A stretch of DNA of 64,000 nucleotides from Raja brachyura (Eukaryota), in assembly GCA_963514005.1 (NCBI GenBank), contig OY740810.1, forward strand, positions 14,508,001-14,572,000. The letters run 5' to 3'. This document shows positions 1 through 64,000 of this stretch, in pieces (the stretch's first letter is position 1; each line of letters starts with the position of its first letter). The notes under the pieces are model-generated. The model was given only the letters and a program-made list of their open reading frames with translations, ran no database searches and was not told where the DNA came from. The position numbers were made by a program, and so were the translations under genes.

Positions 1-89
1 AATGACAATAGAAACAACTACAGGCAGCACAAGTGCATCCACAACAGAAGCTACCACCACCTTCACGACCGCACTACTTAGAGCCACTG
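1..89 (+). CDS. PTS exon, 5'-truncated by window edge (type B: MTIETTTGSTSASTTEATTTFTTALLRAT)
   Basis: Ends at CACTG|GTGAGT donor. Confidence 0.85.
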
Positions 90-12000: not shown

Positions 12001-15000
12001 CATATTGCACACCAAGAAAGATCCCCCTTCATTTGTCACCACCTTGATGATTTGTCACCACCTTGAACAAGCTTAAATCTTTAAAGAAAAACAGACACAA
12101 AGTGCTAGAATAACTCAGTGGGTCAAGCAGCATCCCTGGAGAAAATGGTGACGTTTCGGGTCGAGACTCTTTGTCAGACTGATTGTATTAGGGAGAGTGT
12201 AAAAATGTTTAACTTCATTTTGCTTTCCATCTCTTTCAGATATAGTCGAACCCCCGATAGTACCAGAAACGGAAAAACCAATTGAAGTAGTTCCGCAGGA
12301 ACAATTTAACGTCACCTTCAATGTGTTCAATCTGCCATTCACACCAAGTCTCCAAAATCTCAGTTCCCCATTGTACATGATCGAATCAGCGAACATTATT
12401 AATGAGGTAAACATAATATCTATGATTAGGATCGAGAATAATACATTTAATTATACTTTACGTACTAAAATGAAAATTTTAATTTCCAACAGCTGAATAA
12501 TCTGTTTGCCAATAGCAGTCTAAATTCATCATTTTTAAGGTGTCGGTCTGCATCTTTCCGGTAAGAAAATAATTATTTCTTTGAAAATTCCAAGATAACA
12601 TGAATGTAAACCTATATCAATGCTCAAACAGCATGCATTTATTAAATAATACTAAATAGCTAGTCATAGTAAGAAAATTCTACTCTCACTTTCATAGCCT
12701 GGTGTTTGCATGAGTTATGGACTAGTTTATCTACAATAACTGATAAATTATTGTAAATATTATTTTGCATCTAATATACCTGTTACATGTAAGAGTTTCT
12801 TTGTTTTGCTTCAATTGTGGTGGGTATGAAAAATAAACACTCTTTCATTGTCTCGCTTTTACACTATCATGGTCTAGTTTACTTAGAATAATAGATGATT
12901 TGTTGTACTTTTTTTAAAACTAATGTACTTGTAGAAAATAAGAGTGTCATTGTTCTAGTTCGTTTCCCGTGTATGTGCCAAATAAACTCTGAGGAGTTGA
13001 TTCCCTCACGGTATTGTCACAATCGATTTGGATCTTGCTAAGTAGTACTGATATTTCTGATTCAAATACATTTTTTACATTTAAATAACATTAATTTGGG
13101 GCTTCCAAACAAACTCAGACATGCAGGATGTACTCAGCTTTAGAAAGTCCCAATATGTCAGTTGATTTCATCTCCGACCCTCGCCTGGAGTTTATTAGAC
13201 TCAACTCCTAATAAGAGCGCCAAGTATTTTGCTTGAATTTAACCTCCTCAATGTGGTGTCGGATGTGAAATAGGATTAGAAAAGCAAATCTGTCAATGGG
13301 GATTCCATCAATGGCGATCCCCCTGTCAATTGGGATTATAGAGCAACAAATTCAGATGCAAAGGAAAAGATACGTTTCTTGTTAACTTAAATTATTAAGG
13401 TTAATTTAGCTAACGATATTCAATTTTTTAAACATTTCATCAACTTTACTTTGGTTATAAATCATTTTCTGCAATTTTCATTATTTTTAACCATCTTGGG
13501 AGATCTCAGAAATGTACTGTCTTCTGAAACTCACTCACGGAGTTGACAGCCAATATAACTAGAGACAGGACTATGCCTGATGTTAAAGCTTGAGGAGTGT
13601 TTGCTGGGTGGGGCATGTTCACTGTGCTTCTTGAGGCCCCACCATTTTGGCTGATATAGTTTTATGTTTTAGAGATACAATGTGGAAACAGGCCTATCAG
13701 TTCGACAAGTCCATGTCAACTATTATTCATCCATTAAACACTAGTTCTATGTTATCTCAATATTCTCGTCCACTCCCTAAACATTAAGTGCAATTTACAG
13801 AGGTTCTATTACCTACAAATATGCATGAACAACCGGAGGATACCCATGCAGTCACTGAGCGAAAGTACAAACTCCACCCAGACAGCACCGTTGATTAAAC
13901 CCGGATCTCTGGTGTTATGAGGCAGCAGCTCGACCAGCTGCACCACTGTGCCATTCTTTCCCCAGGATTCCTTGGGTCGGGAGATCTGGCAAGTTGGTCA
14001 TTTCGAAGGTAATAGGCAATGACACCAGGCAAGTGAAATGGCCCATCAGGCTCAGGTGCAACTTGTAACATAATTTTATTGAAGAAAAATAATTACATGG
14101 AAAACAGAAAGTGGTGAAAATATTCAGATGGACAGACAACATCTGTCATGACTGAAACAAATCATGACTGAAACGACCTGTTCATTTTACAAATTAATAC
14201 ATTAATTATTTATACAGGAATATATCTTTCTAGCTGTAACAGACATTTAATTATTTGGTATTAGGTTGAAAGGTTTTACGCTGCTCTTTGTCCATTACAG
14301 TCCAGCAAGTGATGGCAATACCAGAGTGGAAGCAATCTGTGTCTTCGAAACCCTTACTTCAGTTGATGAAGTTCAGATTTACCATGAATTTCAGAACAAC
14401 ACCGAAGGCATCACGGCTTTGGGGTCATATTCATTGGATAGCAACAGCCTGTTTGTGAATGGTACATCTTAATATTAATTAAATATCTAGTCAATTGTAT
14501 TAAAACTGCTACCTGATAATATTTCACTTTGTATGTGTTTTCTTACCCAGTGATATAACTATTCTCTTGATTTTGCAGGTTACCATGAAACATCACCGAC
14601 AACCAGTGAGTACCATTTCTAATTCTATATTTCACTAAATTTTCTTTTATAGCGAATATCAACAGTAAATATTCTTTACCAAACATTGAATAAATATTGT
14701 CATATGTCCCCTCCATATTAGTGATGTAGGCTTGGAAACCGTGTGACAATGGAAAGTGGATGAGATGTGACTGTCCCATCAACATCAATAGATTCACCAC
14801 CACTGATGGCCAGACACTCTATCATACTCAATCCAAAATACCCATGGTACAAATTACTATGACATTGGAAATGAAAAGCATTGACAGAGATGGCTAGAGC
14901 TGAGAGTCAGAGATGGCTAGAGCACAGAAGTAGTCTCTTTGGATCACTAATCCAATATTAATCATTTTTATTCTCTCCTCAACCGCATCATCAATGCCCT

Positions 15001-18000
15001 CCCATTGACATATTTACTTGGATAATTTTACAGTGGCCATTTAGCCTAGACCAATACATAATTTATCTATGTATAACACCTTGTCCAATCTTTACACTGA
15101 GAGATAAAAATGATTCGGCAAAAGCAATTTTTTAATTCATTGTTTAATAATTATTCTTAATTTCTTAACAGCAATATCACTAATCCTATATTAATCACAC
15201 TTATTATTCTCCCTTCATTAAAAGTAATTCACATTATTCCCTTCATTATGTATTTGTACACTGTGGATGGCATGATTGTAATCATAGACCGTTAGTGCCT
15301 TGATGGATACAGCACAGAAAATTGCTCTTTCGATCGTAGATTCTGTGCCAATGGCAATCTACCCCTTCATACTAATCCTATACTAATGACATTTTTTATT
15401 CTCCCTTCATCAAAAGTAATTCACATTATTCCCTTCATTATGTATTTGTACACTGTGGATGGCATGATTGTAATCATGTATAGCATTTCCACTAACTGGT
15501 TAGCATGCAACAAAAGCTTTTCACTTTCCCTCGGCACACATGACAAAGAACTAAACTCAAACGCAAACTCAAACATCCTCTTCAACTGCAGCAAGGTCCT
15601 ACCATTGACCTACTTATTTGGGTCATTTTGCAGTGGCCATAGAGCGTAGACCTATACATTATTCATCTATGTGTAACACTCTTTCCCTTCTTCACACCAA
15701 GTGTTAACAATAATTCAACAAAAAGCTTTTTTTTAATTGATTGTTTAATAATTTTACACAATTTCTTAACAGCAATATCACCAACACAGACCACAACTCC
15801 AAATTTGCAACCAAATCCCCTTGATTTTAACGTAACCTTCGTTGCAACTAACTTGACCTCAGCAGCAGATTTACAAGATCCCAATTCAGCATTGTTCAAC
15901 TCGACAGCAAGTGTTATTGTTTTGCAGGTCAGTTGACAAATTACTGATTGATTTAATCAATTCATTACTCATGGTTCAGACAGTCTAATACTCTAACCAT
16001 TGCCTTTTTACAGCTGAACCAACTGTTTCGCAGCAGTAATGTTAACAAAACCTTCTCCAGCTGCAGAGTTCTCTCATTCAGGTAAGGAAAACTAAGATTC
16101 ATCCGGGTCAGTATTTGCATCAACACCACATGCGACCTCAGAAAAGCAAATGTAACTGCAAATGCATCGACATTTCCTAAATGGTAACTCTGCTAGAAAA
16201 ATGGCAAGCTCATATTTAGACTTGTTTTTCCCAAAGATAATTCCCAAATCAATATTTGTGGATTTCTAGGGAGTTTCACAACGTCCATGGTGGTGCATCC
16301 CAAGTACTTCATGTGCCATGGACACAATGATGTGTAGGTTCATGGACATGCAGTGGTGCACCAGAAAATCAGGTGGTGACTTTCAGATTCTAGACAACTC
16401 CCGCATCATGCAGATATTGTGGTTGACTCATGTAAATGTTGCCACCGAGTGCTTGCAAGGTCTGATTTAGCATTGGTTTGAGAGGAAACAGATCCAGGCC
16501 ATGGATTGCAGTGGTGAAAGCCCATCTCTGATGGGCTCTGATGTACTGTTGATTCCCAATATCATGGCTCACCCCATTCCCAATGTATTAATTTGTGTAC
16601 TAAAATAATACCTCAGGAATCAATAATTGCACAGAAGCAGTCTACAGGGGAAATATTTAATTTATTTTGCAAATTGAATGCCATATCCCCGTCTAGAATT
16701 ATTTTTGGCAAATGACATACATATTACGTGCTTGAGTATATAAATATACAATTCCCCAAAGTTTCAATCAATGGTTTCTATTCCCAAACTGTCTGACATC
16801 TTAAGTCAAGCAGATTTACTCAATTACCTCTGCATCTATTCCACAGCCCCTCAGCTGTACAAGGCACCAGAGTGCATGCAAACTGCACCTTCACAAATGA
16901 CTCTGATACCCAGGATGTTAACAGGGTTAGATTGTACCGTGTGTTCAGAGACCTGTCTGAAGGCATCACCACTCTAGGACCATATGCTCTGGATAGTAAC
17001 AGCCTCTACGTGAACGGTATGTATCACTGAAGTTAGGATTTACTTCTGATCAAATTTATTGGATTCGAGTGAACATTCAGAAAATGTCATAATCTATCAA
17101 TTTCCCCTATTTAATGTACACATTTCGCCAGATACATAATTATTCTTTTAATCTTTCAGGTTACAATGAACCATCACCTTCAACAAGTGAGTACTGTTTT
17201 GAATTTGATATTTCACTAAAATATCCTTTTCTTGCAGTGGATAACAACAGTGAATATATTTACCAAACGTTCAATAAATATTGTCAGATGTTGTCTCCCT
17301 ATTAGTGATGTTAACACAGCTGGTGTATGACAATGGAAAGTGGATGAGATGTGACCATCCTATCATCATCAATGTTTTCATCTCCACTGCTGGCCATACA
17401 TTCCATCAGGCTCCACCCAAAATACCAATGTACCAATCTTTGCTTCATTGGAAATGATAATCATAGACCGTTAGTGCCATGATGGATACAGCACCGAAAT
17501 TGGCTCTTTGGATCGTAGATTCTGTGGCAATGGCAATCTACCCCTTTATTCTAATCCTATATTAATCACATTTTTTATTCTCCCTTCATCAAAAGTAATT
17601 CACATTATTCCCTTCATCATGTATTTGTACACTGTGGATGGCATGATTGTAATCATGTATAGCATTTCCACTAACTGGTTAGCATGCAACAAAAGCTTTT
17701 CACTTTACCTCGGTACACATGACAAAGAACTAAACTCAAACGCAAACTCAAACATCCTCTTTAACTGCAGCAAGGTCCTACCATTGACCGACTTATTTGG
17801 GTCATTTTACAGTGGCCACAGAGCTTAGACCTATACATTATTCATCTATGTGTAACACTCTTGCCCTTCTTTACACCAAGTGTTAACAATAATTCAACAA
17901 AAAGCTTTTTTTTAATTAATTGTTTAATAATTTTGCACAATTTCTTAACAGCAATATCACCAACACAGACCACAACTCCAAATTTGCAAACAAATCCCCT

Positions 18001-21000
18001 TAATTTTAACGTGACCTTCGTTGCAACTAACTTGACCTCAGCAGCAGATTTACAAGATCCCAATTCAGCATTGTTCAACTCGACAGCAAGTGTTATTGTT
18101 TTGCAGGTCAGTTGACAAATTACTGATTGATTTAATCAATTCATTACTCACGGTTCAGACAGTCTAATACTCTAACCATTGCCTTTTTACAGCTGAACCA
18201 ACTGTTTCGCAGCAGTAATGTTAACAAAACCTTCTCCAGCTGCAGAGTTCTCTCATTCAGGTAAGGAAAACTAAGATACATCCGGGTCAGTATTTGCATC
18301 AACACCACGTGCAACCTCAGAAAGGCACTTGTAACTGCAAATGCATCAACATTTCCTAAATGGTAACTCTGATAGAAAAATGGCAAGCTCATATTTAGAC
18401 ATGTTTTTCTCAAAGATAATTCCCAAACCAATATTTGTGGATTTCTAAGGAGTTTCACAACGTCCATGGTGGTGCATCCCAAGCCCTTCATGTGCCATGG
18501 ACACAATGATGTGTAGGTTCATGGACATGCAGTGGTGCACCAGAAAATCAGGTGGTGACTTTCAGATTCTAGACAACTCCCGCATCATGCAGATATTGTG
18601 GTTGACTCATGTAAATGTTGCCACCGAGTGCTTGCAAGGTCTGATTTAGCATTGGTTTGAGAGGAAACAGATCCAGGCCATGGATTGCAGTGGTGAAAGC
18701 GCTCTGATGTACTGTTGATTCCCAATATCATGGCTCACCCCATTCCCAATGTATTAATTTGTGTACTAAAATAATACCTCAGGAATCAATAATTGCACAG
18801 AAACAGTCTACAGGGGAAATATTTAATTTATTTTGCAAATTGAATGCCATATCCCCGTCTAGAATTATTTTTGGCAAATGACATACATATTACGTGCTTG
18901 AGTATATAAATATACAATTCCCCAAAGTTTCAATCAATGGTTTCTATTCCCAAACTGTCTGACATCTTAAGTCAAGCAGATTTACTCAATTACCTCTGCA
19001 TCTATTCCACAGCCCCTCAGCTGTACAAGGCACCAGAGTGCATGCAAACTGCACCTTCACAAATGACTCTGATACCCAGGATGTTAACAGGGTTAGATTG
19101 TACCGTGTGTTCAGAGACCTGTCTGAAGGCATCACCACTCTAGGACCATATGCTCTGGATAGTAACAGCCTCTACGTGAACGGTATGTATCACTGAAGTA
19201 GGATTTACTTCTGATCAAATTTATTGGATTCGAGTGAACATTCAGAAAATGTCATAATCTATCAATTTCCCCTATTTAATGTACACATTTCACCAGATAC
19301 ATAATTATTCTTTTAATCTTTCAGGTTACAATGAACCATCACCTTCAACAAGTGAGTACTGTTTTGAATTTGATATTTCACTAAAATATCCTTTTGTTGC
19401 AGTGGATAACAACAGTGAATATATTTACCAAAAAAAACAATAAATATTGTCAGATGTTGTCTCCCTATTAGTGATGTTAACACAGCTGGTGTATGACAAT
19501 GGAAAGTGGATGAGATGTGACCATCCTATCATCATCAATGTTTTCATCTCCACTGCTGGCCATACATTCCATCAGGCTCCACCCAAAATACCAATGTACC
19601 AATCTTTGCTTCATTGGAAATGATAATCATAGACCGTTAGTGCCTTGATGGATACATCACAGAAAATTGCTCTTTCGATCGTAGATTCTGTGTCAATGGC
19701 AATCTACCCCTTCATACTAATCCTATACTAATGACATTTTTTATTCTCCCTTCATCAAAAGTAATTCACATTATTCCCTTCATCATGTATTTGTACACTG
19801 TGGATGGCATGATTGTAATCATGTATAGCATTTCCACTAACTGGTTAGTATGCAACAAAAGCTTTTCACTTTACCTCGGTACACATGACAAAGAACTAAA
19901 CTCCAACGCAAACTCAAACATCCTCTTCAACTGCAGTAAGGTCCTACCATTGACCTACTTATTTGGGTAATTTTACAGTGGCCATAGAGCTTAGACCTAT
20001 CCATTATTCATCTCTGTGTAACACTGTTTCCTTCTTTACACCAAGTGTTAACAATAATTCAACAAAAAGCTTTTTTTATAATTGATTGTTTAATAATTTC
20101 TTAACAGCAATATCACCAACACAGACCACAACTCCAAATTTGCAAACAAATCCCCTTGATTTTAACGTGACCTTCGTTGCAACTAACTTGACCTCAGCAG
20201 CAGATTTACAAGATCCCAATTCAGCATTGTTCAACTCGACAGCAAGTGTTATTGTTTTGCAGGTCAGTTGACAAATTACTGATTGATTTAATCAATTCAT
20301 TACTCACGGTTCAGACAGTCTAATACTCTAACCATTGCCTTTTTACAGCTGAACCAACTGTTTCGCAGCAGTAATGTTAACAAAACCTTCTCCAGCTGCA
20401 GAGTTCTCTCATTCAGGTAAGGAAAACTAAGATACATCCGGGTCAGTATTTGCATCAACACCACGTGCAACCTCAGAAAGGCACTTGTAACTGCAAATGC
20501 ATCAATATTTCCTAAATGGTAACTCTGATAGAAAAATGGCAAGCTCATATTTAGACTTGTTTTTCCCAAAGATAATTCCCAAACCAATATTTGTGGATTT
20601 CTAAGGAGTTTCACAACGTCCATGGTGGTGCATCCCAAGCCCTTCATGTGCCATGAACACAATGATGTGTAGGTTCCTGGACATGCAGTGGTGCACCAGA
20701 AAATCAGGTGGTGACTTTCAGATTCTAGACAACTCCCGCATCATGCAGATATTGTGGTTGACTCATGTAAATGTTGCCACCGAGTGCTTGCAAGGTCTGA
20801 TTTAGCATTGGTTTGAGAGGAAACAGATCCAGGCCATGGATTGCAGTGGTGAAAGCCCATCTCTGATGGGCTCTGATGTACTGTTGATTCCCAATATCAT
20901 GGCTCATCCCATTCCCAATGTATTAATTTGTGTACTAAAATAATACCTCAGGAATCAATAATTGCACAGAAATAGTCTACAGAGGAAATATTTAATTTAT

Positions 21001-54000: not shown

Positions 54001-57000
54001 TGTATCACTGAAGTTAGGATTTACTTCTGATCAAATTTATTGGATTCGAGTGAACATTCAGAAAATGTCATAATCTATCAATTTCCCCTATTTAATGTAC
54101 ACATTTCGCCAGATACATAATTATTCTTTTAATCTTTCAGGTTACAATGAACCATCACCTTCAACAAGTGAGTACTGTTTTGAATTTGATATTTCACTAA
54201 AATATCCTTTTGTTGCAGTGGATAACAACAGTGAATATATTTACCAAACGTTCAATAAATATTGTCAGATGTTGTCTCCCTATTAGTGATGTTACACAGC
54301 AGGTGTATGACAATCGAAAGTGGATGAGATGTGACTATCCTATCATCATCAATGTTTTCATCTCCACTGCTGGCCATACATTCCATTAGGCTCCACCCAA
54401 AATACCAATGTACCAATCTTTGCTTCATTGGAAATGATAATCATAGATCGTTAGTGCCATGATGGATACAGCACCGAAATTGGCTCTTTGGATCGTAGAT
54501 TCTGTGGCAATGGCAATCTACCCCTTTATTCTAATCCTATATTAATCACATTTTTTATTCTCCCTTCATCAAAAGTAATTCACATTATTCCCTTCATCAT
54601 GTATTTGTACACTGTGGATGGCATGATTGTAATCATGTATAGCATTTCCACTAACTGGTTAGCATGCAACAAAAGCTTTTCACTTTACCTCGGTACACAT
54701 GACAAAGAACTAAACTCCAACGCAAACTCAAACATCCTCCTCAACTGCAGCAAGGTCCTACCATTGACCTACTTATTTGGGTCATTTTACAGTGGCCACA
54801 GAGCTTAGACCTATACATTATTCATCTCTGTGTAACACTCTTTCCTTCTTTACACCAAGTGTTAACAATAATTCAACAAAAAGCTTTTTTTATAATTGAT
54901 TGTTTAATAATTTTGCACAATTTCTTAACAGCAATATCACCAACACAGACCACAACTCCAAATTTGCAAACAAATCCCCTTGATTTTAACGTGACCTTCG
55001 TTGCAACTAACTTGACCTCAGCAGCAGATTTACAAGATCCCAATTCAGCATTGTTCAACTCGACAGCAAGTGTTATTGTTTTGCAGGTCAGTTGACAAAT
55101 TACTGATTGATTTAATCAATTCATTACTCATGGTTCAGACAGTCTAATACTCTAACCATTGCCTTTTTACAGCTGAACCAACTGTTTCGCAGCAGTAATG
55201 TTAACAAAACCTTCTCCAGCTGCAGAGTTCTCTCATTCAGGTAAGGAAAACTAAGATTCATCCGGGTCAGTATTTGCATCAACACCACGTGCGACCTCAG
55301 AAAGGCACATGTTACTGCAAATGCATCAACATTTCCGAAATGGTAACTCTAGAAAAATGGCAAGCTCATATATAGACATGTTTTTCTCAAAGATAATTCC
55401 CAAACCAATATTTGTGGATTTCTAAGGAGTTTCACAACGTCCATGGTGGTGCATCCCAAGTCCTTCATGTGCCATGGACACAATGATGTGTAGGTTCATG
55501 GACATGCAGTGGTGCACCAGAAAATCAGGTGGTGACTTTCAGATTCTAGACAACTCCCGCATCATGCAGATATTGTGGTTGATTCATGTAAATGTTGCCA
55601 CCGAGTGCTTGCAAGGTCTGATTTAGCATTGGTTTGAGAGGAAACAGATCCAGGCCATGGATTGCAGTGGTGAAAGCCCATCTCTGATGGGCTCTGATGT
55701 ACTGTTGATTCCCAATATCATGGCTCATCCCATTCCCAATGTATTAATTTGTGTACTAAAATAATACCTCAGGAATCAATAATTGCACAGAAATAGTCTA
55801 CAGAGGAAATATTTAATTTATTTTGCAAATTGAATGCCATATCCCCGTCTAGAATTATTCTGGCAAATGACATACATATTACGTGCTTGAGTATATAAAT
55901 ATACTATTCCCCAACGTTTCAATCAATGGTTTCTATTCCCAAACTGTCTGACATATTAAGTCAAGCAGATTTACTCAATTACCTCTGCATCTATTCCACA
56001 GCCCCTCAGCTGTACAAGGCACCAGAGTGCATGCAAACTGCACCTTCACAAATGACTCTGATCCCCAGGATGTTAACAGGGTTAGATTGTACCGTGTGTT
56101 CAGAGACCTGTCTGAAGGCATCACCACTCTAGGACCATATTCTCTGGATAGTAACAGCCTCTACGTGAACGGTATGTATCACTGAAGTTAGGATTTACTT
56201 CTGATCAAATTTATTGGATTCGAGTGAACATTCAGAAAATGTCATAATCTATCAATTTCCCCTATTTAATGTACACATTTCGCCAGATACATAATTATTC
56301 TTTTAATCTTTCAGGTTACAATGAACCATCACCTTCAACAAGTGAGTACTGTTTTGAATTTGATATTTCACTAAAATATCCTTTTGTTGCAGTGGATAAC
56401 AACAGTGAATATATTTACCAAACGTTCAATAAATATTGTCAGATGTTGTCTCCCTATTAGTGATGTTACACAGCAGGTGTATGACAATCGAAAGTGGATG
56501 AGATGTGACTATCCTATCATCATCAATGTTTTCATCTCCACTGCTGGCCATACATTCCATTAGGCTCCACCCAAAATACCAATGTACCAATCTTTGCTTC
56601 ATTGGAAATGATAATCATAGACCGTTAGTGCCATGATGGATACAGCACCGAAATTGGCTCTTTGGATCGTAGATTCTGTGGCAATGGCAATCTACCCCTT
56701 TATTCTAATCCTATATTAATCACATTTTTTATTCTCCCTTCATCAAAAGTAATTCACATTATTCCCTTCATCATGTATTTGTACACTGTGGATGGCATGA
56801 TTGTAATCATGTATAGCATTTCCACTAAATGGTTAGCATGCAACAAAAGCTTTTCACTTTACCTCGGTACACATGACAAAGAACTAAACTCCAACGCAAA
56901 CTCAAACATCCTCTTCAACTGCAGGAAGGTCCTACCATTGACCTACTTATTTGGGTCATTTTACAGTGGCCATAGAGCTTAGACCTATACATTATTCATC

Positions 57001-60000
57001 TCTGTGTAACACTCTTTCCTTCTTTACACCAAGTGTTAACAATAATTCAACAAAAAGCTTTTTTTATAATTGATTGTTTAATAATTTTGCACAATTTCTT
57101 AACAGCAATATCACCAACACAGACCACAACTCCAAATTTGCAAACAAATCCCCTTGATTTTAACGTGACCTTCGTTGCAACTAACTTGACCTCAGCAGCA
57201 GATTTACAAGATCCCAATTCAGCATTGTTCAACTCGACAGCAAGTGTTATTGTTTTGCAGGTCAGTTGACAAATTACTGATTGATTTAATCAATTCATTA
57301 CTCATGGTTCAGACAGTCTAATACTCTAACCATTGCCTTTTTACAGCTGAACCAACTGTTTCGCAGCAGTAATGTTAACAAAACCTTCTCCAGCTGCAGA
57401 GTTCTCTCATTCAGGTAAGGAAAACTAAGATTCATCCGGGTCAGTATTTGCATCAACACCACGTGCGACCTCAGAAAGGCACATGTTACTGCAAATGCAT
57501 CAACATTTCCGAAATGGTAACTCTAGAAAAATGGCAAGCTCATATTTAGACATGTTTTTCTCAAAGATAATTCCCAAACCAATATTTGTGGATTTCTAAG
57601 GAGTTTCACAACGTCCATGGTGGTGCATCCCAAGTCCTTCATGTGCCATGGACACAATGATGTGTAGGTTCATGGACATGCAGTGGTGCACCAGAAAATC
57701 AGGTGGTGACTTTCAGATTCTAGACAACTCCCGCATCATGCAGATATTGTGGTTGATTCATGTAAATGTTGCCACCGAGTGCTTGCAAGGTCTGATTTAG
57801 CATTGGTTTGAGAGGAAACAGATCCAGGCCATGGATTGCAGTGGTGAAAGCCCATCTCTGATGGGCTCTGATGTACTGTTGATTCCCAATATCATGGCTC
57901 ATCCCATTCCCAATGTATTAATTTGTGTACTAAAATAATACCTCAGGAATCAATAATTGCACAGAAATAGTCTACAGAGGAAATATTTAATTTATTTTGC
58001 AAATTGAATGCCATATCCCCGTCTAGAATTATTCTGGCAAATGACATACATATTACGTGCTTGAGTATATAAATATACTATTCCCCAACGTTTCAATCAA
58101 TGGTTTCTATTCCCAAACTGTCTGACATATTAAGTCAAGCAGATTTACTCAATTACCTCTGCATCTATTCCACAGCCCCTCAGCTGTACAAGGCACCAGA
58201 GTGCATGCAAACTGCACCTTCACAAATGACTCTGATCCCCAGGATGTTAACAGGGTTAGATTGTACCGTGTGTTCAGAGACCTGTCTGAAGGCATCACCA
58301 CTCTAGGACCATATTCTCTGGATAGTAACAGCCTCTACGTGAACGGTATGTATCACTGAAGTTAGGATTTACTTCTGATCAAATTTATTGGATTCGAGTG
58401 AACATTCAGAAAATGTCATAATCTATCAATTTCCCCTATTTAATGTACACATTTCGCCAGATACATAATTATTCTTTTAATCTTTCAGGTTACAATGAAC
58501 CATCACCTTCAACAAGTGAGTACTGTTTTGAATTTGATATTTCACTAAAATATCCTTTTGTTGCAGTGGATAACAACAGTGAATATATTTACCAAACGTT
58601 CAATAAATATTGTCAGATGTTGTCTCCCTATTAGTGATGTTACACAGCAGGTGTATGACAATCGAAAGTGGATGAGATGTGACTATCCTATCATCATCAA
58701 TGTTTTCATCTCCACTGCTGGCCATACATTCCATTAGGCTCCACCCAAAATACCAATGTACCAATCTTTGCTTCATTGGAAATGATAATCATAGACCGTT
58801 AGTGCCATGATGGATACAGCACCGAAATTGGCTCTTTGGATCGTAGATTCTGTGGCAATGGCAATCTACCCCTTTATTCTAATCCTATATTAATCACATT
58901 TTTTATTCTCCCTTCATCAAAAGTAATTCACATTATTCCCTTCATCATGTATTTGTACACTGTGGATGGCATGATTGTAATCATGTATAGCATTTCCACT
59001 AACTGGTTAGCATGCAACAAAAGCTTTTCACTTTACCTCGGTCCCCTTGACAAAGAACTAAACTCCAACGCAAACTCAAACATCCTCCTCAACTGCAGCA
59101 AGGTCCTACCATTGACCTACTTATTTGGGTCATTTTACAGTGGCCATAGAGCTTAGACCTATACATTATTCATCTCTGTGTAACACTCTTTCCTTCTTTA
59201 CACCAAGTGTTAACAATAATTCAACAAAAAGCTTTTTTTATAATTGATTGCTTAATAATTTTGCACAATTTCTTAACAGCAATATCACCAACACAGACCA
59301 CAACTCCAAATTTGCAACCAAATCCCCTTGATTTTAACGTGACCTTCGTTGCAACTAACTTGACCTCAGCAGCAGATTTACAAGATCCCAATTCAGCATT
59401 GTTCAACTCGACAGCAAGTGTTATTGTTTTGCAGGTCAGTTGACAAATTACTGATTGATTTAATCAATTCATTACTCATGGTTCAGACAGTCTAATACTC
59501 TAACCATTGCCTTTTTACAGCTGAACCAACTGTTTCGCAGCAGTAATGTTAACAAAACCTTCTCCAGCTGCAGAGTTCTCTCATTCAGGTAAGGAAAACT
59601 AAGATTCATCCGGGTCAGTATTTGCATCAACACCACGTGCGACCTCAGAAAGGCACATGTTACTGCAAATGCATCAACATTTCCGAAATGGTAACTCTGA
59701 TAGAAAAATGGCAAGCTCATATTTAGACATGTTTTTCTCAAAGATAATTCCCAAACCAATATTTGTGGATTTCTAAGGAGTTTCACAACGTCCATGGTGG
59801 TGCATCCCAAGCCCTTCATGTGCCATGGACACAATGATGTGTAGGTTCATGGACATGCAGTGGTGCACCAGAAAATCAGGTGGTGACTTTCAGATTCTAG
59901 ACAACTCCCGCATCATGCAGATATTGTGGTTGACTCATGTAAATGTTGCCACCGAGTGCTTGCAAGGTCTGATTTAGCATTGGTTTGAGAGGAAACAGAT

Positions 60001-63000
60001 CCAGGCCATGGATTGCAGTGGTGAAAGCCCATCTCTGATGGGCTCTGATGTACTGTTGATTCCCAATATCATGGCTCATCCCATTCCCAATGTATTAATT
60101 TGTGTACTAAAATAATACCTCAGGAATCAATAATTGCACAGAAATAGTCTACAGAGGAAATATTTAATTTATTTTGCAAATTGAATGCCATATCCCCGTC
60201 TAGAATTATTCTGGCAAATGACATACATGTTACGTGCTTGAGTATATAAATATACTATTCCCCAACGTTTCAATCAATGGTTTCTATTCCCAAACTGTCT
60301 GACATATTAAGTCAAGCAGATTTACTCAATTACCTCTGCATCTATTCCACAGCCCCTCAGCTGTACAAGGCACCAGAGTGCATGCAAACTGCACCTTCAC
60401 AAATGACTCTGATACCCAGGATGTTAACAGGGTTAGATTGTACCGTGTGTTCAGAGACCTGTCTGAAGGCATCACCACTCTAGGACCATATTCTCTGGAT
60501 AGTAACAGCCTCTACGTGAACGGTATGTATCACTGAAGTTAGGATTTACTTCTGATCAAATTTATTGGATTCGAGTGAACATTCAGAAAATGTCATAATC
60601 TATCAATTTCCCCTATTTAATGTACACATTTCGCCAGATACATAATTATTCTTTTAATCTTTCAGGTTACAATGAACCATCACCTTCAACAAGTGAGTAC
60701 TGTTTTGAATTTGATATTTCACTAAAATATCCTTTTGTTGCAGTGGATAACAACAGTGAATATATTTACCAAACGTTCAATAAATATTGTCAGATGTGGT
60801 CTCCCCATTAGTGATGTTAACGCAGCAGGTGTATAACAATGGAAAGTGGATGAGATGTGACCATCCTATCATCATCAATGTTTTCATCTCCACTGCTGGC
60901 CATACATTCCATCAGGCTCCACCCAAAATACCAATGTACCAATCTTTGCTTCATTGGAAATGATAATCATAGACCGTTAGTGCCATCATGGATACAGCAC
61001 CGAAATTGGCTCTTTGGATCGTAGATTCTGTGGCAATGGCAATCTACCCCTTTATTCTAATCCTATATTAATCACATTTTTTATTCTCCCTTCATCAAAA
61101 GTAATTCACATTATTCCCTTCATCATGCATTTATACACTGTGGATGGCATGATTGTAATCATGTATAGCGTTTCCACTAACTGGTTAGTATGCAACAAAA
61201 GCTTTTCACTTTACCTCGGTACACATGACAAAGAACTAAACTCCAACGCAAACTCAAACATCCTCTTCAACTGCAGCAAGGTCCTACCATTGACCTACTT
61301 ATTTGGGTCATTTTACAGTGGCCACAGAGCTCAGACCTATACATTATTCATCTGTGTGTAACAATCTTGCCCTTCTTTACACCAAGTGTTAACAATAATT
61401 CAACAAAAAACTTTTTTTAAATTGATTGTTTAATAATTTTGCACAATTTCTTAACAGCAATATCACCAACACAGACCACAACTCCAAATTTGCAAACAAA
61501 TCCCCTTGATTTTAACGTGACCTTCGTTGCAACTAACTTGACCACAGCAGCAGATTTACAAGATCCCAATTCAGCATTGTTCAAATCGACAGCAAGTGTT
61601 ATTGTTTTGCAGGTCAGTTGACAAATTACTGATTGATTTAATCAATTCATTACTCATGGTTCAGACAGTCTAATACTCTAACCATTGCCTTTTTACAGCT
61701 GAACCAACTGTTTCGCAGCAGTAATGTTAACAAAACCTTCTCCAGCTGCAGAGTTCTCTCATTCAGGTAAGGAAAACTAAGATTCATCCGGGTCAGTATT
61801 TGCATCAACACCACGTACAACCTCAGAAAGGCACATGTTACTGCAAATGCATCAATATTTCCTAAATGGTAACTCTGATAGAAAAATGGCAAGCTCATAT
61901 TTAGACATGTTTTTCTCAAAGATAATTCCCAAACCAATATTTGTGGATTTCTAAGGAGTTTCACAACGTCCATGGTGGTGCATCCCAAGCCCTTCATGTG
62001 CCATGGACACAATGATGTGTAGGTTCATGGACATGCAGTGGTGCACCAGAAAATCAGGTGGTGACTTTCAGATTCTAGACAACTCCCGCATCATGCAGAT
62101 ATTGTGGTTGACTCATGTAAATGTTGCCACCGAGTGCTTGCAAGGTCTGATTTAGCATTGGTTTGAGAGGAAACAGATCCAGGCCATGGATTGCAGTGGT
62201 GAAAGCCCATCTCTGATGGGCTCTGATGTACTGTTGATTCCCAATATCATGCCTCATCCCATTCCCAATGTATTAATTTGTGTACTAAAATAATACCTCA
62301 GGAATCAATAATTGCACAGAAATAGTCTACAGAGGAAATATTTAATTTATTTTGCAAATTGAATGCCATATCCCCGTCTAGAATTATTCTGGCAAATGAC
62401 ATACATATTACGTGCTTGAGTATATAAATATACTATTCCCCAACGTTTCAATCAATGGTTTCTATTCCCAAACTGTCTGACATATTAAGTCAAGCAGATT
62501 TACTCAATTACCTCTGCATCTATTCCACAGCCCCTCAGCTGTACAAGGCACCAGAGTGCATGCAAACTGCACCTTCACAAATGACTCTGATCCCCAGGAT
62601 GTTAACAGGGTTAGATTGTACCGTGTGTTCAGAGACCTGTCTGAAGGCATCACCACTCTAGGACCATATTCTCTGGATAGTAACAGCCTCTACGTGAACG
62701 GTATGTATCACTGAAGTTAGGATTTACTTCTGATCAAATTTATTGGATTCGAGTGAACATTCAGAAAATGTCATAATCTATCAATTTCCCCTATTTAATG
62801 TACACATTTCGCCAGATACATAATTATTCTTTTAATCTTTCAGGTTACAATGAACCATCACCTTCAACAAGTGAGTACTGTTTTGAATTTGATATTTCAC
62901 TAAAATATCCTTTTGTTGCAGTGGATAACAACAGTGAATATATTTACCAAACGTTCAATAAATATTGTCAGATGTTGTCTCCCTATTAGTGATGTTACAC

Positions 63001-63943
63001 AGCAGGTGTATGACAATGGAAAGTGGATGAGATGTGACTATCCTATCATCATCAATGTTTTCATCTCCACTGCTGGCCATACATTCCATTAGGCTCCACC
63101 CAAAATACCAATGTACCAATCTTTGCTTCATTGGAAATGATAATCATAGACCGTTAGTGCCATGATGGATACAGCACCGAAATTGGCTCTTTGGATCGTA
63201 GATTCTGTGGCAATGGCAATCTACCCCTTTATTCTAATCCTATATTAATCACATTTTTTATTCTCCCTTCATCAAAAGTAATTCACATTATTCCCTTCAT
63301 CATGTATTTGTACACTGTGGATGGCATGATTGTAATCATGTATAGCATTTCCACTAACTGGTTAGTATGCAACAAAAGCTTTTCACTTTACCTCGGTACA
63401 CATGACAAAGAACTAAACTCCAACGCAAACTCAAACATCCTCTTCAACTGCAGCAAGGTCCTACCATTGACCTACTTATTTGGGTCATTTTACAGTGGCC
63501 ATAGAGCTTAGACCTATACATTATTCATCTCTGTGTAACACTCTTTCCTTCTTTACACCAAGTGTTAATAATAATTCAACAAAAAGCTTTTTTTATAATT
63601 GATTGTTTAATAATTTTGCACAATTTCTTAACAGCAATATCACCAACACAGACCACAACTCCAAATTTGCAACCAAATCCCCTTGATTTTAACGTGACCT
63701 TCGTTGCAACTAACTTGACCTCAGCAGCAGATTTACAAGATCCCAATTCAGCATTGTTCAACTCGACAGCAAGTGTTATTGTTTTGCAGGTCAGTTGACA
63801 AATTACTGATTGATTTAATCAATTCATTACTCATGGTTCAGACAGTCTAATACTCTAACCATTGCCTTTTTACAGCTGAACCAACTGTTTCGCAGCAGTA
63901 ATGTTAACAAAACCTTCTCCAGCTGCAGAGTTCTCTCATTCAG
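1..63943 (+). CDS. MUC16: Internal part of a giant multi-exon MUC16/CA125-like mucin: PTS exon array, then 23 complete plus 1 partial SEA modules; 5' and 3' ends lie outside the window
   Basis: Canonical AG/GT-bounded exons join in one frame. The SEA repeat ends ...EGITTLGPY(A/S)LDSNSLYVNG, closely matching the human MUC16 repeat motif GITELGPYTLDRDSLYVNG as I recall it. It has FNVTF..TNL (cf. FTLNFTITNL), a two-Cys loop, and a Thr/Ser-rich domain upstream. Orthology is an inference; read the symbol as MUC16-like. Confidence 0.75.
416..574 (+). CDS. PTS exon, 159 nt, type A (ETTVPSTSTEATATASITTSVPTSATTETTTGSTSASTTEATTTFTTTPLTTT)
   Basis: tttccag acceptor, gtgagt donor, phase 1-1, open frame. 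Confidence 0.9.
900..1055 (+). CDS. PTS exon, 156 nt, type B with in-frame 3-nt deletion
   Basis: AG/GT bounded, phase 1-1. Confidence 0.9.
1382..1540 (+). CDS. PTS exon, 159 nt, type A
   Basis: AG/GT bounded, phase 1-1. Confidence 0.9.
1866..2024 (+). CDS. PTS exon, 159 nt, type B
   Basis: AG/GT bounded, phase 1-1. Confidence 0.9.
2351..2509 (+). CDS. PTS exon, 159 nt, type C (...GSTRAS...FMTTP)
   Basis: AG/GT bounded, phase 1-1. Confidence 0.9.
2835..2993 (+). CDS. PTS exon, 159 nt, type A
   Basis: AG/GT bounded, phase 1-1. Confidence 0.9.
3319..3477 (+). CDS. PTS exon, 159 nt, type B
   Basis: AG/GT bounded, phase 1-1. Confidence 0.9.
3804..3962 (+). CDS. PTS exon, 159 nt
   Basis: AG/GT bounded, phase 1-1. 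Confidence 0.9.
4288..4440 (+). CDS. PTS exon, 153 nt (in-frame 6-nt deletion, lacks VP)
   Basis: AG/GT bounded; lies within ORF 4257-4463. Confidence 0.9.
4766..4918 (+). CDS. PTS exon, 153 nt (same 6-nt deletion)
   Basis: AG/GT bounded; lies within ORF 4735-4941. Confidence 0.9.
5244..5402 (+). CDS. PTS exon, 159 nt
   Basis: AG/GT bounded, phase 1-1. Confidence 0.9.
5728..5886 (+). CDS. PTS exon, 159 nt, type B
   Basis: AG/GT bounded, phase 1-1. Confidence 0.9.
6213..6371 (+). CDS. PTS exon, 159 nt, type A
   Basis: AG/GT bounded, phase 1-1. Confidence 0.9.
6697..6855 (+). CDS. PTS exon, 159 nt, type B
   Basis: AG/GT bounded, phase 1-1. Confidence 0.9.
7182..7340 (+). CDS. PTS exon, 159 nt, type C
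   Basis: AG/GT bounded, phase 1-1. Confidence 0.9.
7666..7824 (+). CDS. PTS exon, 159 nt, type A
   Basis: AG/GT bounded, phase 1-1. Confidence 0.9.
8150..8308 (+). CDS. PTS exon, 159 nt
   Basis: AG acceptor, GTGAGC donor. Confidence 0.88.
8636..8794 (+). CDS. PTS exon, 159 nt
   Basis: AG/GT bounded; lies within ORF 8605-8871. Confidence 0.9.
9123..9281 (+). CDS. PTS exon, 159 nt
   Basis: AG/GT bounded, phase 1-1. Confidence 0.9.
9611..9870 (+). pseudogene. Disrupted PTS exon copy (insertion, plus deletion of the 3' half and donor)
   Basis: Normal acceptor and first ~59 nt are present, then ~183 nt of foreign sequence. The exon resumes briefly (TCAGTCCCCACAT, 9853-9865), then jumps to intron sequence with no GTGAG donor. 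Confidence 0.8.
9667..9852 (-). mobile_element. Short 3' fragment of a non-LTR retroelement (LINE-type tail) inserted antisense
   Basis: The minus strand ends AATAAAACTTGACTTGA, a poly(A)-signal-like motif plus short tandem-repeat tail typical of fish LINE 3' ends. It interrupts an otherwise regular unit. Family not determined. Confidence 0.6.
10143..10155 (+). pseudogene. 13-nt relic of a PTS exon (acceptor retained, remainder deleted)
   Basis: catttccag|AAATCAGTGTACC is followed directly by mid-intron sequence AATAGAATAAGTTAACATG. Confidence 0.65.
10411..10569 (+). CDS. Last, most divergent PTS array exon, 159 nt
   Basis: AG/GT bounded; ETTVPSTSTEATTTASSTTSVPISAAIETTTGSSSVSATDATIRFTSTPLTTT. 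Confidence 0.88.
10855..11143 (-). mobile_element. tRNA-derived SINE, V-SINE/HE1-like
   Basis: Minus strand has a tRNA-like head (CAGTGGTGCA...) with B-box GGGTTCGACCC at 11086-11096. It also has the V-domain-like GTGGGTTTCC...GCTCCGGTTCCTCCCA..CCAAAGATGTGCAGGT and a CR1-like tail GGGCCAAAGAGCCT. Confidence 0.8.
11320..11424 (+). CDS. Unique 105-nt Ser/Thr-rich linker exon (ETTETSSTSIQTSTSLQGSSSATTVTSSEATNPMT)
   Basis: ttctag acceptor, G|GTAAGA donor, phase 1-1. Confidence 0.85.
11627..11730. repeat. C-rich low-complexity intronic tract
   Basis: Many runs of 4-13 C; produces the spurious poly-Pro ORFs. Confidence 0.8.
12093..12182 (-). mobile_element. Fragment of an elasmobranch-type interspersed repeat (probably Penelope-like/retrozyme-related) with a degenerate hammerhead-like motif
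   Basis: Minus strand reads TCAGT-CTGACAA-A-GAGTC-TC-GACCC-GAAAC-GTCA...GATGCTGCTTGACCCACTGAGTTATTCTAGCAC. Family assignment is from recalled similarity, not a search. Confidence 0.5.
12240..14605 (+). CDS. Divergent first SEA module; exons 12240-12406, 12493-12560, 14301-14461, 14579-14605 (423 nt, 141 aa)
   Basis: DIVEPPIVPETEKPIEVVPQEQFNVTFNVFNLPFTPSLQNLSSPLYMIESANIINE|LNNLFANSSLNSSFLRCRSASFR|PASDGNTRVEAICVFETLTSVDEVQIYHEFQNNTEGITALGSYSLDSNSLFVNG|YHETSPTT. Same exon phases (1-0-2-1-1) as the array units. Confidence 0.88.
13668..13952 (-). mobile_element. Second V-SINE/HE1-like SINE, internally deleted and more decayed
   Basis: Minus strand head GGCACAGTGGTGCAGCTGGTCGAGCTGCTGCCTCA...CCGGGTTTAATC and tail ...AGGCCTGTTTCCACATTGTATCTCTAAA; homologous to 10855-11143. 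Confidence 0.75.
15773..17186 (+). CDS. SEA repeat 1; exons 15773-15927, 16014-16081, 16847-17016, 17160-17186 (140 aa)
   Basis: TISPTQTTTPNLQPNPLDFNVTFVATNLTSAADLQDPNSALFNSTASVIVLQ|LNQLFRSSNVNKTFSSCRVLSFS|PSAVQGTRVHANCTFTNDSDTQDVNRVRLYRVFRDLSEGITTLGPYALDSNSLYVNG|YNEPSPST; all introns GT-AG. Confidence 0.92.
17485..17830 (-). mobile_element. Old SINE-tail relic in the inter-module intron, present in every unit
   Basis: GATACAGCACCGAAATTGGCTCTTTGG and CATTTTACAGTGGCCA resemble the corresponding parts of the SINE copies at 13668-13952 and 10855-11143. Confidence 0.4.
17591..17753 (+). mobile_element. LINE-type 3'-end fragment nested in the inter-module intron, co-amplified in every unit
   Basis: Ends ...GCTTTTCACTTTACCTCGGTACACATGACAAAGAACTAAACTCAAACGCAAACTCAAAC, a degenerate (AAACTC)n tail. 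Absent from the homologous intron at ~14965-14985. Confidence 0.6.
17952..19351 (+). CDS. SEA repeat 2; exons 17952-18106, 18193-18260, 19013-19182, 19325-19351
   Basis: Same exon sizes and splice sites; D>N in exon A. Confidence 0.92.
20108..21521 (+). CDS. SEA repeat 3; exons 20108-20262, 20349-20416, 21182-21351, 21495-21521
   Basis: Same exon sizes and splice sites. Confidence 0.92.
22289..23702 (+). CDS. SEA repeat 4; exons 22289-22443, 22530-22597, 23363-23532, 23676-23702
   Basis: Same exon sizes and splice sites. Confidence 0.92.
24470..25882 (+). CDS. SEA repeat 5; exons 24470-24624, 24711-24778, 25543-25712, 25856-25882
   Basis: Same exon sizes and splice sites; SEG>SAG. Confidence 0.92.
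26646..28045 (+). CDS. SEA repeat 6; exons 26646-26800, 26887-26954, 27706-27875, 28019-28045
   Basis: Same exon sizes and splice sites; L>M, R>G, E>G. Confidence 0.92.
28812..30224 (+). CDS. SEA repeat 7; exons 28812-28966, 29053-29120, 29885-30054, 30198-30224
   Basis: Same exon sizes and splice sites. Confidence 0.92.
30990..32402 (+). CDS. SEA repeat 8; exons 30990-31144, 31231-31298, 32063-32232, 32376-32402
   Basis: Same exon sizes and splice sites; V>G in Cys loop. Confidence 0.92.
33168..34580 (+). CDS. SEA repeat 9; exons 33168-33322, 33409-33476, 34241-34410, 34554-34580
   Basis: Same exon sizes and splice sites; V>G. Confidence 0.92.
35346..36758 (+). CDS. SEA repeat 10; exons 35346-35500, 35587-35654, 36419-36588, 36732-36758
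   Basis: Same exon sizes and splice sites; V>G. Confidence 0.92.
37524..38936 (+). CDS. SEA repeat 11; exons 37524-37678, 37765-37832, 38597-38766, 38910-38936
   Basis: Same exon sizes and splice sites; V>G. Confidence 0.92.
39702..41114 (+). CDS. SEA repeat 12; exons 39702-39856, 39943-40010, 40775-40944, 41088-41114
   Basis: Same exon sizes and splice sites; V>G. Confidence 0.92.
41881..43292 (+). CDS. SEA repeat 13; exons 41881-42035, 42122-42189, 42953-43122, 43266-43292
   Basis: Same exon sizes and splice sites; L>S, VNG>VND. Confidence 0.92.
44058..45470 (+). CDS. SEA repeat 14; exons 44058-44212, 44299-44366, 45131-45300, 45444-45470
   Basis: Same exon sizes and splice sites; VNG>VND. 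Confidence 0.92.
46237..47636 (+). CDS. SEA repeat 15; exons 46237-46391, 46478-46545, 47297-47466, 47610-47636
   Basis: Same exon sizes and splice sites; N>S, VNG>VND. Confidence 0.92.
48402..49814 (+). CDS. SEA repeat 16; exons 48402-48556, 48643-48710, 49475-49644, 49788-49814
   Basis: Same exon sizes and splice sites. Confidence 0.92.
50578..51990 (+). CDS. SEA repeat 17; exons 50578-50732, 50819-50886, 51651-51820, 51964-51990
   Basis: Same exon sizes and splice sites; DTQ>DPQ. Confidence 0.92.
52755..54167 (+). CDS. SEA repeat 18; exons 52755-52909, 52996-53063, 53828-53997, 54141-54167
   Basis: Same exon sizes and splice sites; DTQ>DPQ. Confidence 0.92.
54932..56341 (+). CDS. SEA repeat 19; exons 54932-55086, 55173-55240, 56002-56171, 56315-56341
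   Basis: Same exon sizes and splice sites; DTQ>DPQ. Confidence 0.92.
57106..58515 (+). CDS. SEA repeat 20; exons 57106-57260, 57347-57414, 58176-58345, 58489-58515
   Basis: Same exon sizes and splice sites; DTQ>DPQ. Confidence 0.92.
59280..60692 (+). CDS. SEA repeat 21; exons 59280-59434, 59521-59588, 60353-60522, 60666-60692
   Basis: Same exon sizes and splice sites; QPN variant. Confidence 0.92.
61458..62870 (+). CDS. SEA repeat 22; exons 61458-61612, 61699-61766, 62531-62700, 62844-62870
   Basis: Same exon sizes and splice sites; S>T, FNST>FKST, DTQ>DPQ. Confidence 0.92.
63635..63943 (+). CDS. SEA repeat 23 (partial); exons 63635-63789, 63876-63943
   Basis: Same exon sizes and splice sites; cut by window edge. 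Confidence 0.9.
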
Positions 63944-64000
63944 GTAAGGAAAACTAAGATTCATCCGGGTCAGTATTTGCATCAACACCACGTGCGACCT

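Follow-up and report, generated by a model that had tools for sequence, protein, structure and literature searches.

The homogenised 2.18-kb array analysed here is very probably the SEA region of a skate MUC16, one of two tandem copies; in human, MUC16 is known as the ovarian-cancer marker CA125. The predicted product, a type I membrane mucin, would have ~20,000 residues and likely coats wet epithelia. The window, that is the whole 64,000-nucleotide stretch of DNA under analysis, corresponds to positions 14,508,001-14,572,000 of contig C32 (OY740810.1), plus strand, and the assembly searched comprises 2.70 Gb. Coordinates marked 'ext' are C32 positions minus 14,508,000 and extend the window numbering beyond both ends. 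We refer to the gene containing the array as gene A and to its upstream neighbour as gene B.

Exons, splicing and extent of gene A

The window holds the following features.

1..9669, + strand: 3' end of the PTS array with 484-bp period, one Thr/Ser-rich exon of 153-159 nt (phase 1 at both ends) per unit
From 9611, + strand: truncated PTS exon within the 3' end of the 484-bp array
10411..10569, + strand: last PTS repeat exon, 159 nt
11320..11424, + strand: Ser/Thr-rich linker exon, 105 nt, joining the PTS and SEA regions
12240..14605, + strand: first, diverged SEA unit, with exons 12240-12406, 12493-12560, 14301-14461 and 14579-14605
15279..64000, + strand: homogenised 2.18-kb SEA array, of which the window includes 22 complete units and a partial one
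15773..15927, + strand: unit 1 exon A of 155 nt; codes the Thr/Pro linker plus SEA positions 3-33
16014..16081, + strand: unit 1 exon B of 68 nt; codes SEA positions 37-58 with the first Cys
16847..17016, + strand: unit 1 exon C of 170 nt; codes SEA positions 63-106 with the second Cys and the MUC16-type motif
17160..17186, + strand: unit 1 exon D, 27 nt, short linker

Self-alignment revealed a period of ~2,177 bp from position 15279 to the window end, with 97-99% identity, 23 exon-A starts and 22 complete units. All 22 complete units carry exons of 155, 68, 170 and 27 nt, each flanked by AG and GT and free of stops, that together give 420 nt or 140 codons, as a preliminary description of this DNA had proposed; the 23rd unit consists of exons A and B only and ends at 63943. 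The diverged first unit (167/68/161/27 nt) is in frame with the last Thr/Ser exons upstream and with unit 1 downstream, and 24 SEA units touch the window (12240-63943), in agreement with the earlier count of at least 24 SEA domains. The MUC16-type motif quoted at that time is complete in 14/22 units and shows one-residue variants in the other 8/22, with A replacing S in five and D replacing the last G in three. The longest open stretch in any frame of a unit is 117 codons, so that the gene would escape an ORF track.

Taken in order, the exons A to C cover successive parts of the Pfam SEA domain, at the positions listed above, which bears out the proposed SEA identity; each of these exons alone falls below the Pfam cut-off, and five of six window exons were matched. 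A whole-genome Pfam SEA search returned no repeat exons, since these are too short for the cut-off, and found only the last SEA domain and four places on C3 (C3:135,223; 355,066; 5,771,647; 6,245,597). The latter are four near-identical copies of another SEA-domain gene of non-MUC16 type. Exon C matched exclusively MUC16 chains in the PDB (3/3, best E 7.5e-8). Two Cys with 18 residues between them were present in all seven repeat-type units examined, and every repeat holds six N-glycosylation sequons.

Splicing was assessed in contigs of run X1, a public run from a relative that is RNA by guess and counts as one line of evidence. These contigs contain seven GT..AG joints corresponding to all seven predicted introns in 12200-17300, including the joints after all four exons of the first SEA unit, as well as eight further GT..AG joints among late SEA exons, amounting to 15 in total. 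Junctions of the SEA region, as predicted earlier, are thus spliced in one run of a relative; the seven joints of 12200-17300 were not seen in runs X2 and X4.

Downstream, the homogenised array reaches ext 91,025, 27 kb past the window, and comprises 35 units, followed by 11 diverged SEA units, so that gene A has 47 SEA domains overall. A second copy of the first-unit SEA type, mid-array at ext 91,475, and the remains of a decayed exon A at ext 98,555 point to an older block duplication. LINE-like fragments of ~6 kb occupy the exon B-C intron of the last SEA (L006:6100-10000, L007:1-2000). Transmembrane (TM) and cytoplasmic tail exons, which the preliminary description had suggested looking for downstream, follow at ext 128,647-128,759 (64.6 kb past the window) and, with the stop codon, at ext 131,700-131,789 (67.7 kb past it). 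The predicted tail has ~30 residues with two tyrosines, and TM and tail align with MUC16 tails.

Upstream, the 484-bp PTS array reaches 130 kb beyond the window. Among 265 acceptor matches, 260 correspond to intact, stop-free phase-1 exons of 150-159 nt, which encode 13,533 residues (51% Thr, 18% Ser) and would be spliced to the SEA region, in the PTS-to-SEA order described earlier. The array also shows a two-unit higher-order period of ~960 bp, and a 4.7-kb LTR retroelement lies inside one PTS exon (ext -87,154 to -82,308; 206-bp ends 99% identical). The best signal-exon candidate, at ext -133,323, matches the signal exon of the paralogue in length, phase and donor. If all exons are used, gene A would span 265 kb and ~450 exons, a count that assumes linker exons in some diverged SEA units, and encode ~20,200 residues. 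Titin has fewer exons, 363.

The protein architecture that we infer from this layout would lead from the signal exon through a ~13,500-residue, O-glycosylated Thr/Ser stalk to a SEA rod with 47 domains, followed by a single membrane span and a ~30-residue tail. By analogy with the CA125 C-loop, the Cys pair of each repeat likely forms a disulfide. Shedding of the outer part likely takes place in or close to the membrane-proximal SEA, where Gly-Ser-Ile stands at the place of the MUC1-type cleavage loop. The product likely forms a thick protective sugar coat on wet epithelia, in analogy to MUC16, which parts of PMC3431878, PMC10829539 and PMC10875768 describe as a type I membrane mucin with an O-glycosylated stalk, SEA rod, anchor, short tail and shedding from the surface.

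The large share of intact PTS exons, the presence of a single good signal-exon candidate upstream of them and the fact that relatives' models connect PTS repeats with SEA repeats all argue against the PTS and SEA arrays being two transcription units, or being subject to exon skipping so heavy that the actual protein is much shorter. We consider this alternative unlikely, even though the joints examined in run X1 are those of the SEA region and RefSeq gives relatives much shorter models, with 3,584 aa in the closest one. Some skipping must occur, because one PTS exon is split by the LTR element and another is truncated. Every PTS exon and every four-exon SEA unit is in phase 1 at both ends, and gain, loss or skipping of such symmetric modules preserves the frame; the LTR-bearing exon would be tolerated through exon skipping.

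Homogenisation, coding constraint and the tandem paralogue

Divergence between units increases from 1.1% for neighbours to ~5% across the array, a rise with distance that is the pattern of unequal crossing-over, and both the PTS and the SEA arrays likely expand and contract through this process. In another skate the 140-aa period recurs 13 times in succession, and separate homogenised SEA arrays exist in lungfish, paddlefish, bichir and frog. The expansion is ongoing concerted evolution that the other skate shares, and no one-off event. Of the recent, lineage-specific expansion claimed earlier, the array itself is real; it is larger than described, with 47 SEA domains, and not unique to this skate.

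The smooth increase of divergence and the absence of N gaps from the array make it quite improbable that a real array had its copy number inflated through assembly error, despite six unit pairs that are identical over their full length and only 29 distinct sequences among 34 units. Collapsed unit contigs of run X4 have a depth of ~160-170, compared to 6-7 on unique DNA, which gives a weak hint of ~25 copies in a relative.

The SEA units are under purifying selection. Across 34 near-identical units of 420 nt (one of the 35, at 417 nt, was excluded), there were no exonic indels, compared to ~4.5 expected from the introns, and the variant codons comprised 15 synonymous and 23 non-synonymous ones (omega ~0.48, p 0.023).

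Immediately upstream, in the same orientation, lies gene B (ext -311,271 to -182,305; C32:14,196,729-14,325,695). It has a signal exon, a single long PTS-like exon and, in units of mixed period, at least 38 matches to SEA exon C, and it ends in a last SEA, a TM exon and a tail. Genome-wide, all 83 exon-C matches fall inside genes A and B. In the C-terminal tree, each of the two genes pairs with its own Callorhinchus gene (support 95/96 and 90/79), suggesting that the duplication likely predates the split between chimaeras and sharks/rays.

Orthology to MUC16

Orthology to MUC16 is supported by synteny, PDB matches and the SEA tree. On C32, DOT1L (10.87 Mb) and OAZ (11.02 Mb) are followed by the two mucins (14.20-14.64 Mb), two ACTL9-like genes (14.69 Mb), ZAP70 (15.01 Mb), ADAMTS (15.27 Mb) and a long-tailed MYO1 (myosin I; 15.39 Mb). 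The order on chicken chromosome 28 is DOT1L, OAZ, MUC16, ACTL9, ZAP70, ADAMTS10 and MYO1F, with ACTL9 directly 3' of MUC16 (SNP table within PMC4558091), and all seven skate markers follow it, with a weak match for OAZ (OAZ1; E 0.002) and with ADAMTS10 and MYO1F named by position only. ZAP70 was called by PDB matches of 4e-47 against 9e-39 for SYK. The ACTL9-like genes are intronless and stand in tandem directly 3' of the mucin (L012:4387-5652 and L012:8674-9909). At a distance of 50 kb beyond the tail, an actin-like gene without introns shows 100% identity to a Rajidae cluster representative, and its best tetrapod matches carry the name ACTL9. NDUFA7 and RPS28 also reside on C32, at a distance of 10 Mb, and therefore support the linkage group only and not the local order. 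MUC16, ADAMTS10 and MYO1F are placed at 19p13.2 in a part of PMC8220141.

The nearest relative of gene A is its direct orthologue in Amblyraja radiata, XP_032902718.1 (mucin-16-like), with 90% identity in the SEA core, 89% in TM and tail, and the same 140-aa period. Together with the Rajidae match of the actin-like gene, this identifies the source as a rajid skate, in line with the cartilaginous fish suspected from the letters alone. The Amblyraja protein contains 23 Pfam SEA stretches and gave a best PDB match to MUC16 at 1e-19, followed by the mouse Muc16-type chain 1ivz at 3e-14, with the next family at 0.007; no MUC1 chain was found among its six PDB matches (E up to 10).

For the SEA tree, we took up to five domains each from 24 proteins and from both skate genes, 103 SEA domains in total; its outgroups were MUC1-like only, MUC13, MUC3/17, IMPG and perlecan being left out. 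This phylogeny, of the kind proposed earlier, placed the skate repeats with those of lungfish, ray-finned fish, frog, reptiles and mammals in a clade of 69 rows (support 100/99), which stands apart from MUC1-like and lamprey domains, and both MUC16 SEA subtypes were present in the skate gene. Scores of the repeat SEAs were 163-214 with the MUC16 repeats of amniotes, compared to 28-63 with MUC1 SEAs. An AU test did not reject a grouping of chondrichthyan repeats with MUC1-like SEAs (p 0.105). The C-terminal tree comprised rows with a full C-terminus, 60 of 174 proteins, and two long rows were dropped in a rerun; here, the MUC1 branch attached unstably, once beside the chondrichthyan genes with a support of 97. 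TM and tail alone do not separate MUC16 from MUC1-like proteins, as two of the latter score 98-99 and mammalian MUC16 91-99. A split of MUC1 from the rest (97/99) was considered as evidence of MUC16 monophyly and rejected, since with no further outgroup and an unstable attachment it shows only that MUC1-like rows group together.

Against orthology stand the AU result, the unstable MUC1 branch and the choice of outgroups; synteny carries the orthology claim. The 7/7 marker order largely refutes a MUC1-related origin and, along with the repeat scores and the two SEA subtypes, makes it very unlikely that this is a multi-SEA mucin of another family, MUC1-related or independently expanded, that resembles MUC16 by convergence or shared ancestry. 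The AU value and the MUC1 attachment speak for such a mucin, as does an axolotl protein named mucin-1 with 13 SEA domains, showing that many SEAs are not unique to MUC16. Hardly credible is a macrosatellite without coding function or a satellite amplified from a dead gene, for although the copies are 95-100% alike, and their open frames could derive from one recent unit, the 34 units have neither stops nor exonic indels and a low omega, joints are spliced in X1 (where intron-less joints make a non-RNA origin unlikely), the 3' end is intact and orthologues exist in all chondrichthyans searched.

The array very probably belongs to a MUC16, as the preliminary description had suggested in proposing an orthologue or close relative, with the difference that the gene is one of two tandem co-orthologues instead of a single one. 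Together, synteny and the SEA tree place a full MUC16 in the jawed-vertebrate ancestor, the age claimed at the outset, with a root that is probably older.

Deeper history and comparison with known systems

Two lamprey proteins, XP_061407377.1 (mucin-2-like) and XP_061435159.1 (mucin-5AC-like), resemble the skate gene in having many SEA domains (up to 15), a Gly-Ser-type last SEA and a MUC16-type TM and tail. Their best PDB match is MUC16 (E 2e-5, compared to 0.5 for MUC1), which the Atlas also ranks higher; unlike those of the skate, their repeats lie outside the jawed-vertebrate repeat clade of the SEA tree. The MUC16 family is probably older than jawed vertebrates and includes lampreys. Among the 30 representatives looked up, no teleost was named with a MUC16-type tail; two proteins of teleosts, each with 8-9 weakly matching stretches, may represent divergent multi-SEA mucins. 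MUC1 of amphibians and gecko has 13, 8 and 2 SEA domains, so that MUC1 is also multi-SEA outside mammals; MUC1 and MUC16 may be old paralogues.

In skate, sawfish, chimaera, bichir, paddlefish, lungfish, two frogs and lamprey, the SEA subtype with the Gly-Ser motif occupies the last position; in turtle, lizard and the mammalian models that contain it, it comes second-last. It is missing from three of six mammalian models in the tree work, perhaps skipped by the models. This subtype groups with support 91/55, not starred, and SEAs in last position are firmly not one clade (p 1e-65). A group of frog-penultimate and amniote-last SEAs reached an SH-aLRT of 90 in a quick tree and was rejected, being absent from the careful tree (p 0.52). 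Compared to the GSVVV autocleavage motif of MUC1, the last skate SEA has Gly-Ser-Ile-Lys-Cys and that of the paralogue Gly-Ser-Val-Lys-Val, similar and not identical, and the second-last SEA of turtle has the full GSVVV. In keeping with this order, the human DSVLV domain is second from the membrane (PMC3431878, in part). The simplest reading would be a swap of the last two SEA domains, or an insertion, in the amniote stem. A broader reading, in which MUC16 is ancestral from lampreys on, the skate gene is one ~450-exon unit, the Gly-Ser SEA was ancestrally last and amniotes swapped it, is tentative, with a chance that we put a little short of even. The ancestral last SEA would then have been MUC1-like and next to the membrane, and the amniote swap, if true, would explain why the decayed DSVLV of human MUC16 sits one domain off the membrane.

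The skate gene joins a known family, as mucin-16-like genes of sharks and rays are already in RefSeq, and to the specialist the result is for this reason more useful than surprising. In addition to Amblyraja, RefSeq mucin-16-like models exist in Pristis, Hypanus, Mobula, Chiloscyllium, Carcharodon, Heterodontus and Callorhinchus (XP_007897134.1), and the name is also given in bichir, sturgeon, paddlefish and lungfish. The earlier expectation that annotation pipelines lose such a locus was therefore too strong, with mucin-16-like entries in at least 13 chondrichthyan species, and held insofar as the models have far fewer repeats: the automatically named chondrichthyan models that correspond to gene A have at most 23 SEA domains and a short PTS part. 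A published orthology test for the chondrichthyan proteins did not turn up in the literature searched. Our full-text search of openly accessible papers, judged by the entries listed, yielded none that deals with MUC16 of lampreys or cartilaginous fish, and nothing on the synteny, the ~450-exon layout, the lamprey relatives or the amniote swap of the last two SEAs. In its accessible parts, PMC4948705 does not mention MUC16, and those of PMC7712407, PMC9578598 and PMC3680472 hold nothing bearing on the MUC16 question. According to parts of PMC1552070, Muc16 is present in chicken and transmembrane mucins are largely missing in fish; PMC4046138, likewise in part, derives MUC16 from agrin and calls its many SEAs unique among mammalian mucins. 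What is added here are the orthology test and the full gene size, together with a tandem paralogue, a lead to lampreys and the altered order of SEA domains.

Human MUC16/CA125 (PDB 7sa9, 8gkl, 8vm1; parts of PMC3431878 and PMC10829539) has the same succession of PTS, tandem SEA, TM and short tail as the skate gene, and the repeats of both share two Cys, separated by 19 residues in human and other mammals compared to 18 in skate, and the C-terminal motif. The human repeat has 156 aa and five exons, as opposed to 140 aa and four exons in skate; since MUC16 periods range from 122 to 156 aa in mammals and are 137 aa in frog and lungfish, we do not treat the human values as family-defining. Gene A has 47 SEA domains, whereas human MUC16 has 19 repeats; its Gly-Ser-type SEA is last instead of second-last as in amniotes, and two MUC16-type genes stand in tandem, unlike in human. 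The PTS part is encoded by ~260 one-repeat exons in skate and by nine exons in human MUC16. Muc13 carries a single SEA domain. Chicken Muc13 belongs to a different family and, like the skate gene, encodes its PTS part with one repeat per exon, a design proposed there as ancestral (PMC1552070, in part) that skate shows in a MUC16 with ~260 such exons. Short-read annotation loses much of such genes, the best model of a related skate having ~1/6 of the predicted length. The order of SEA subtypes from skate to amniotes offers a history of the MUC16 cleavage site that can be tested.
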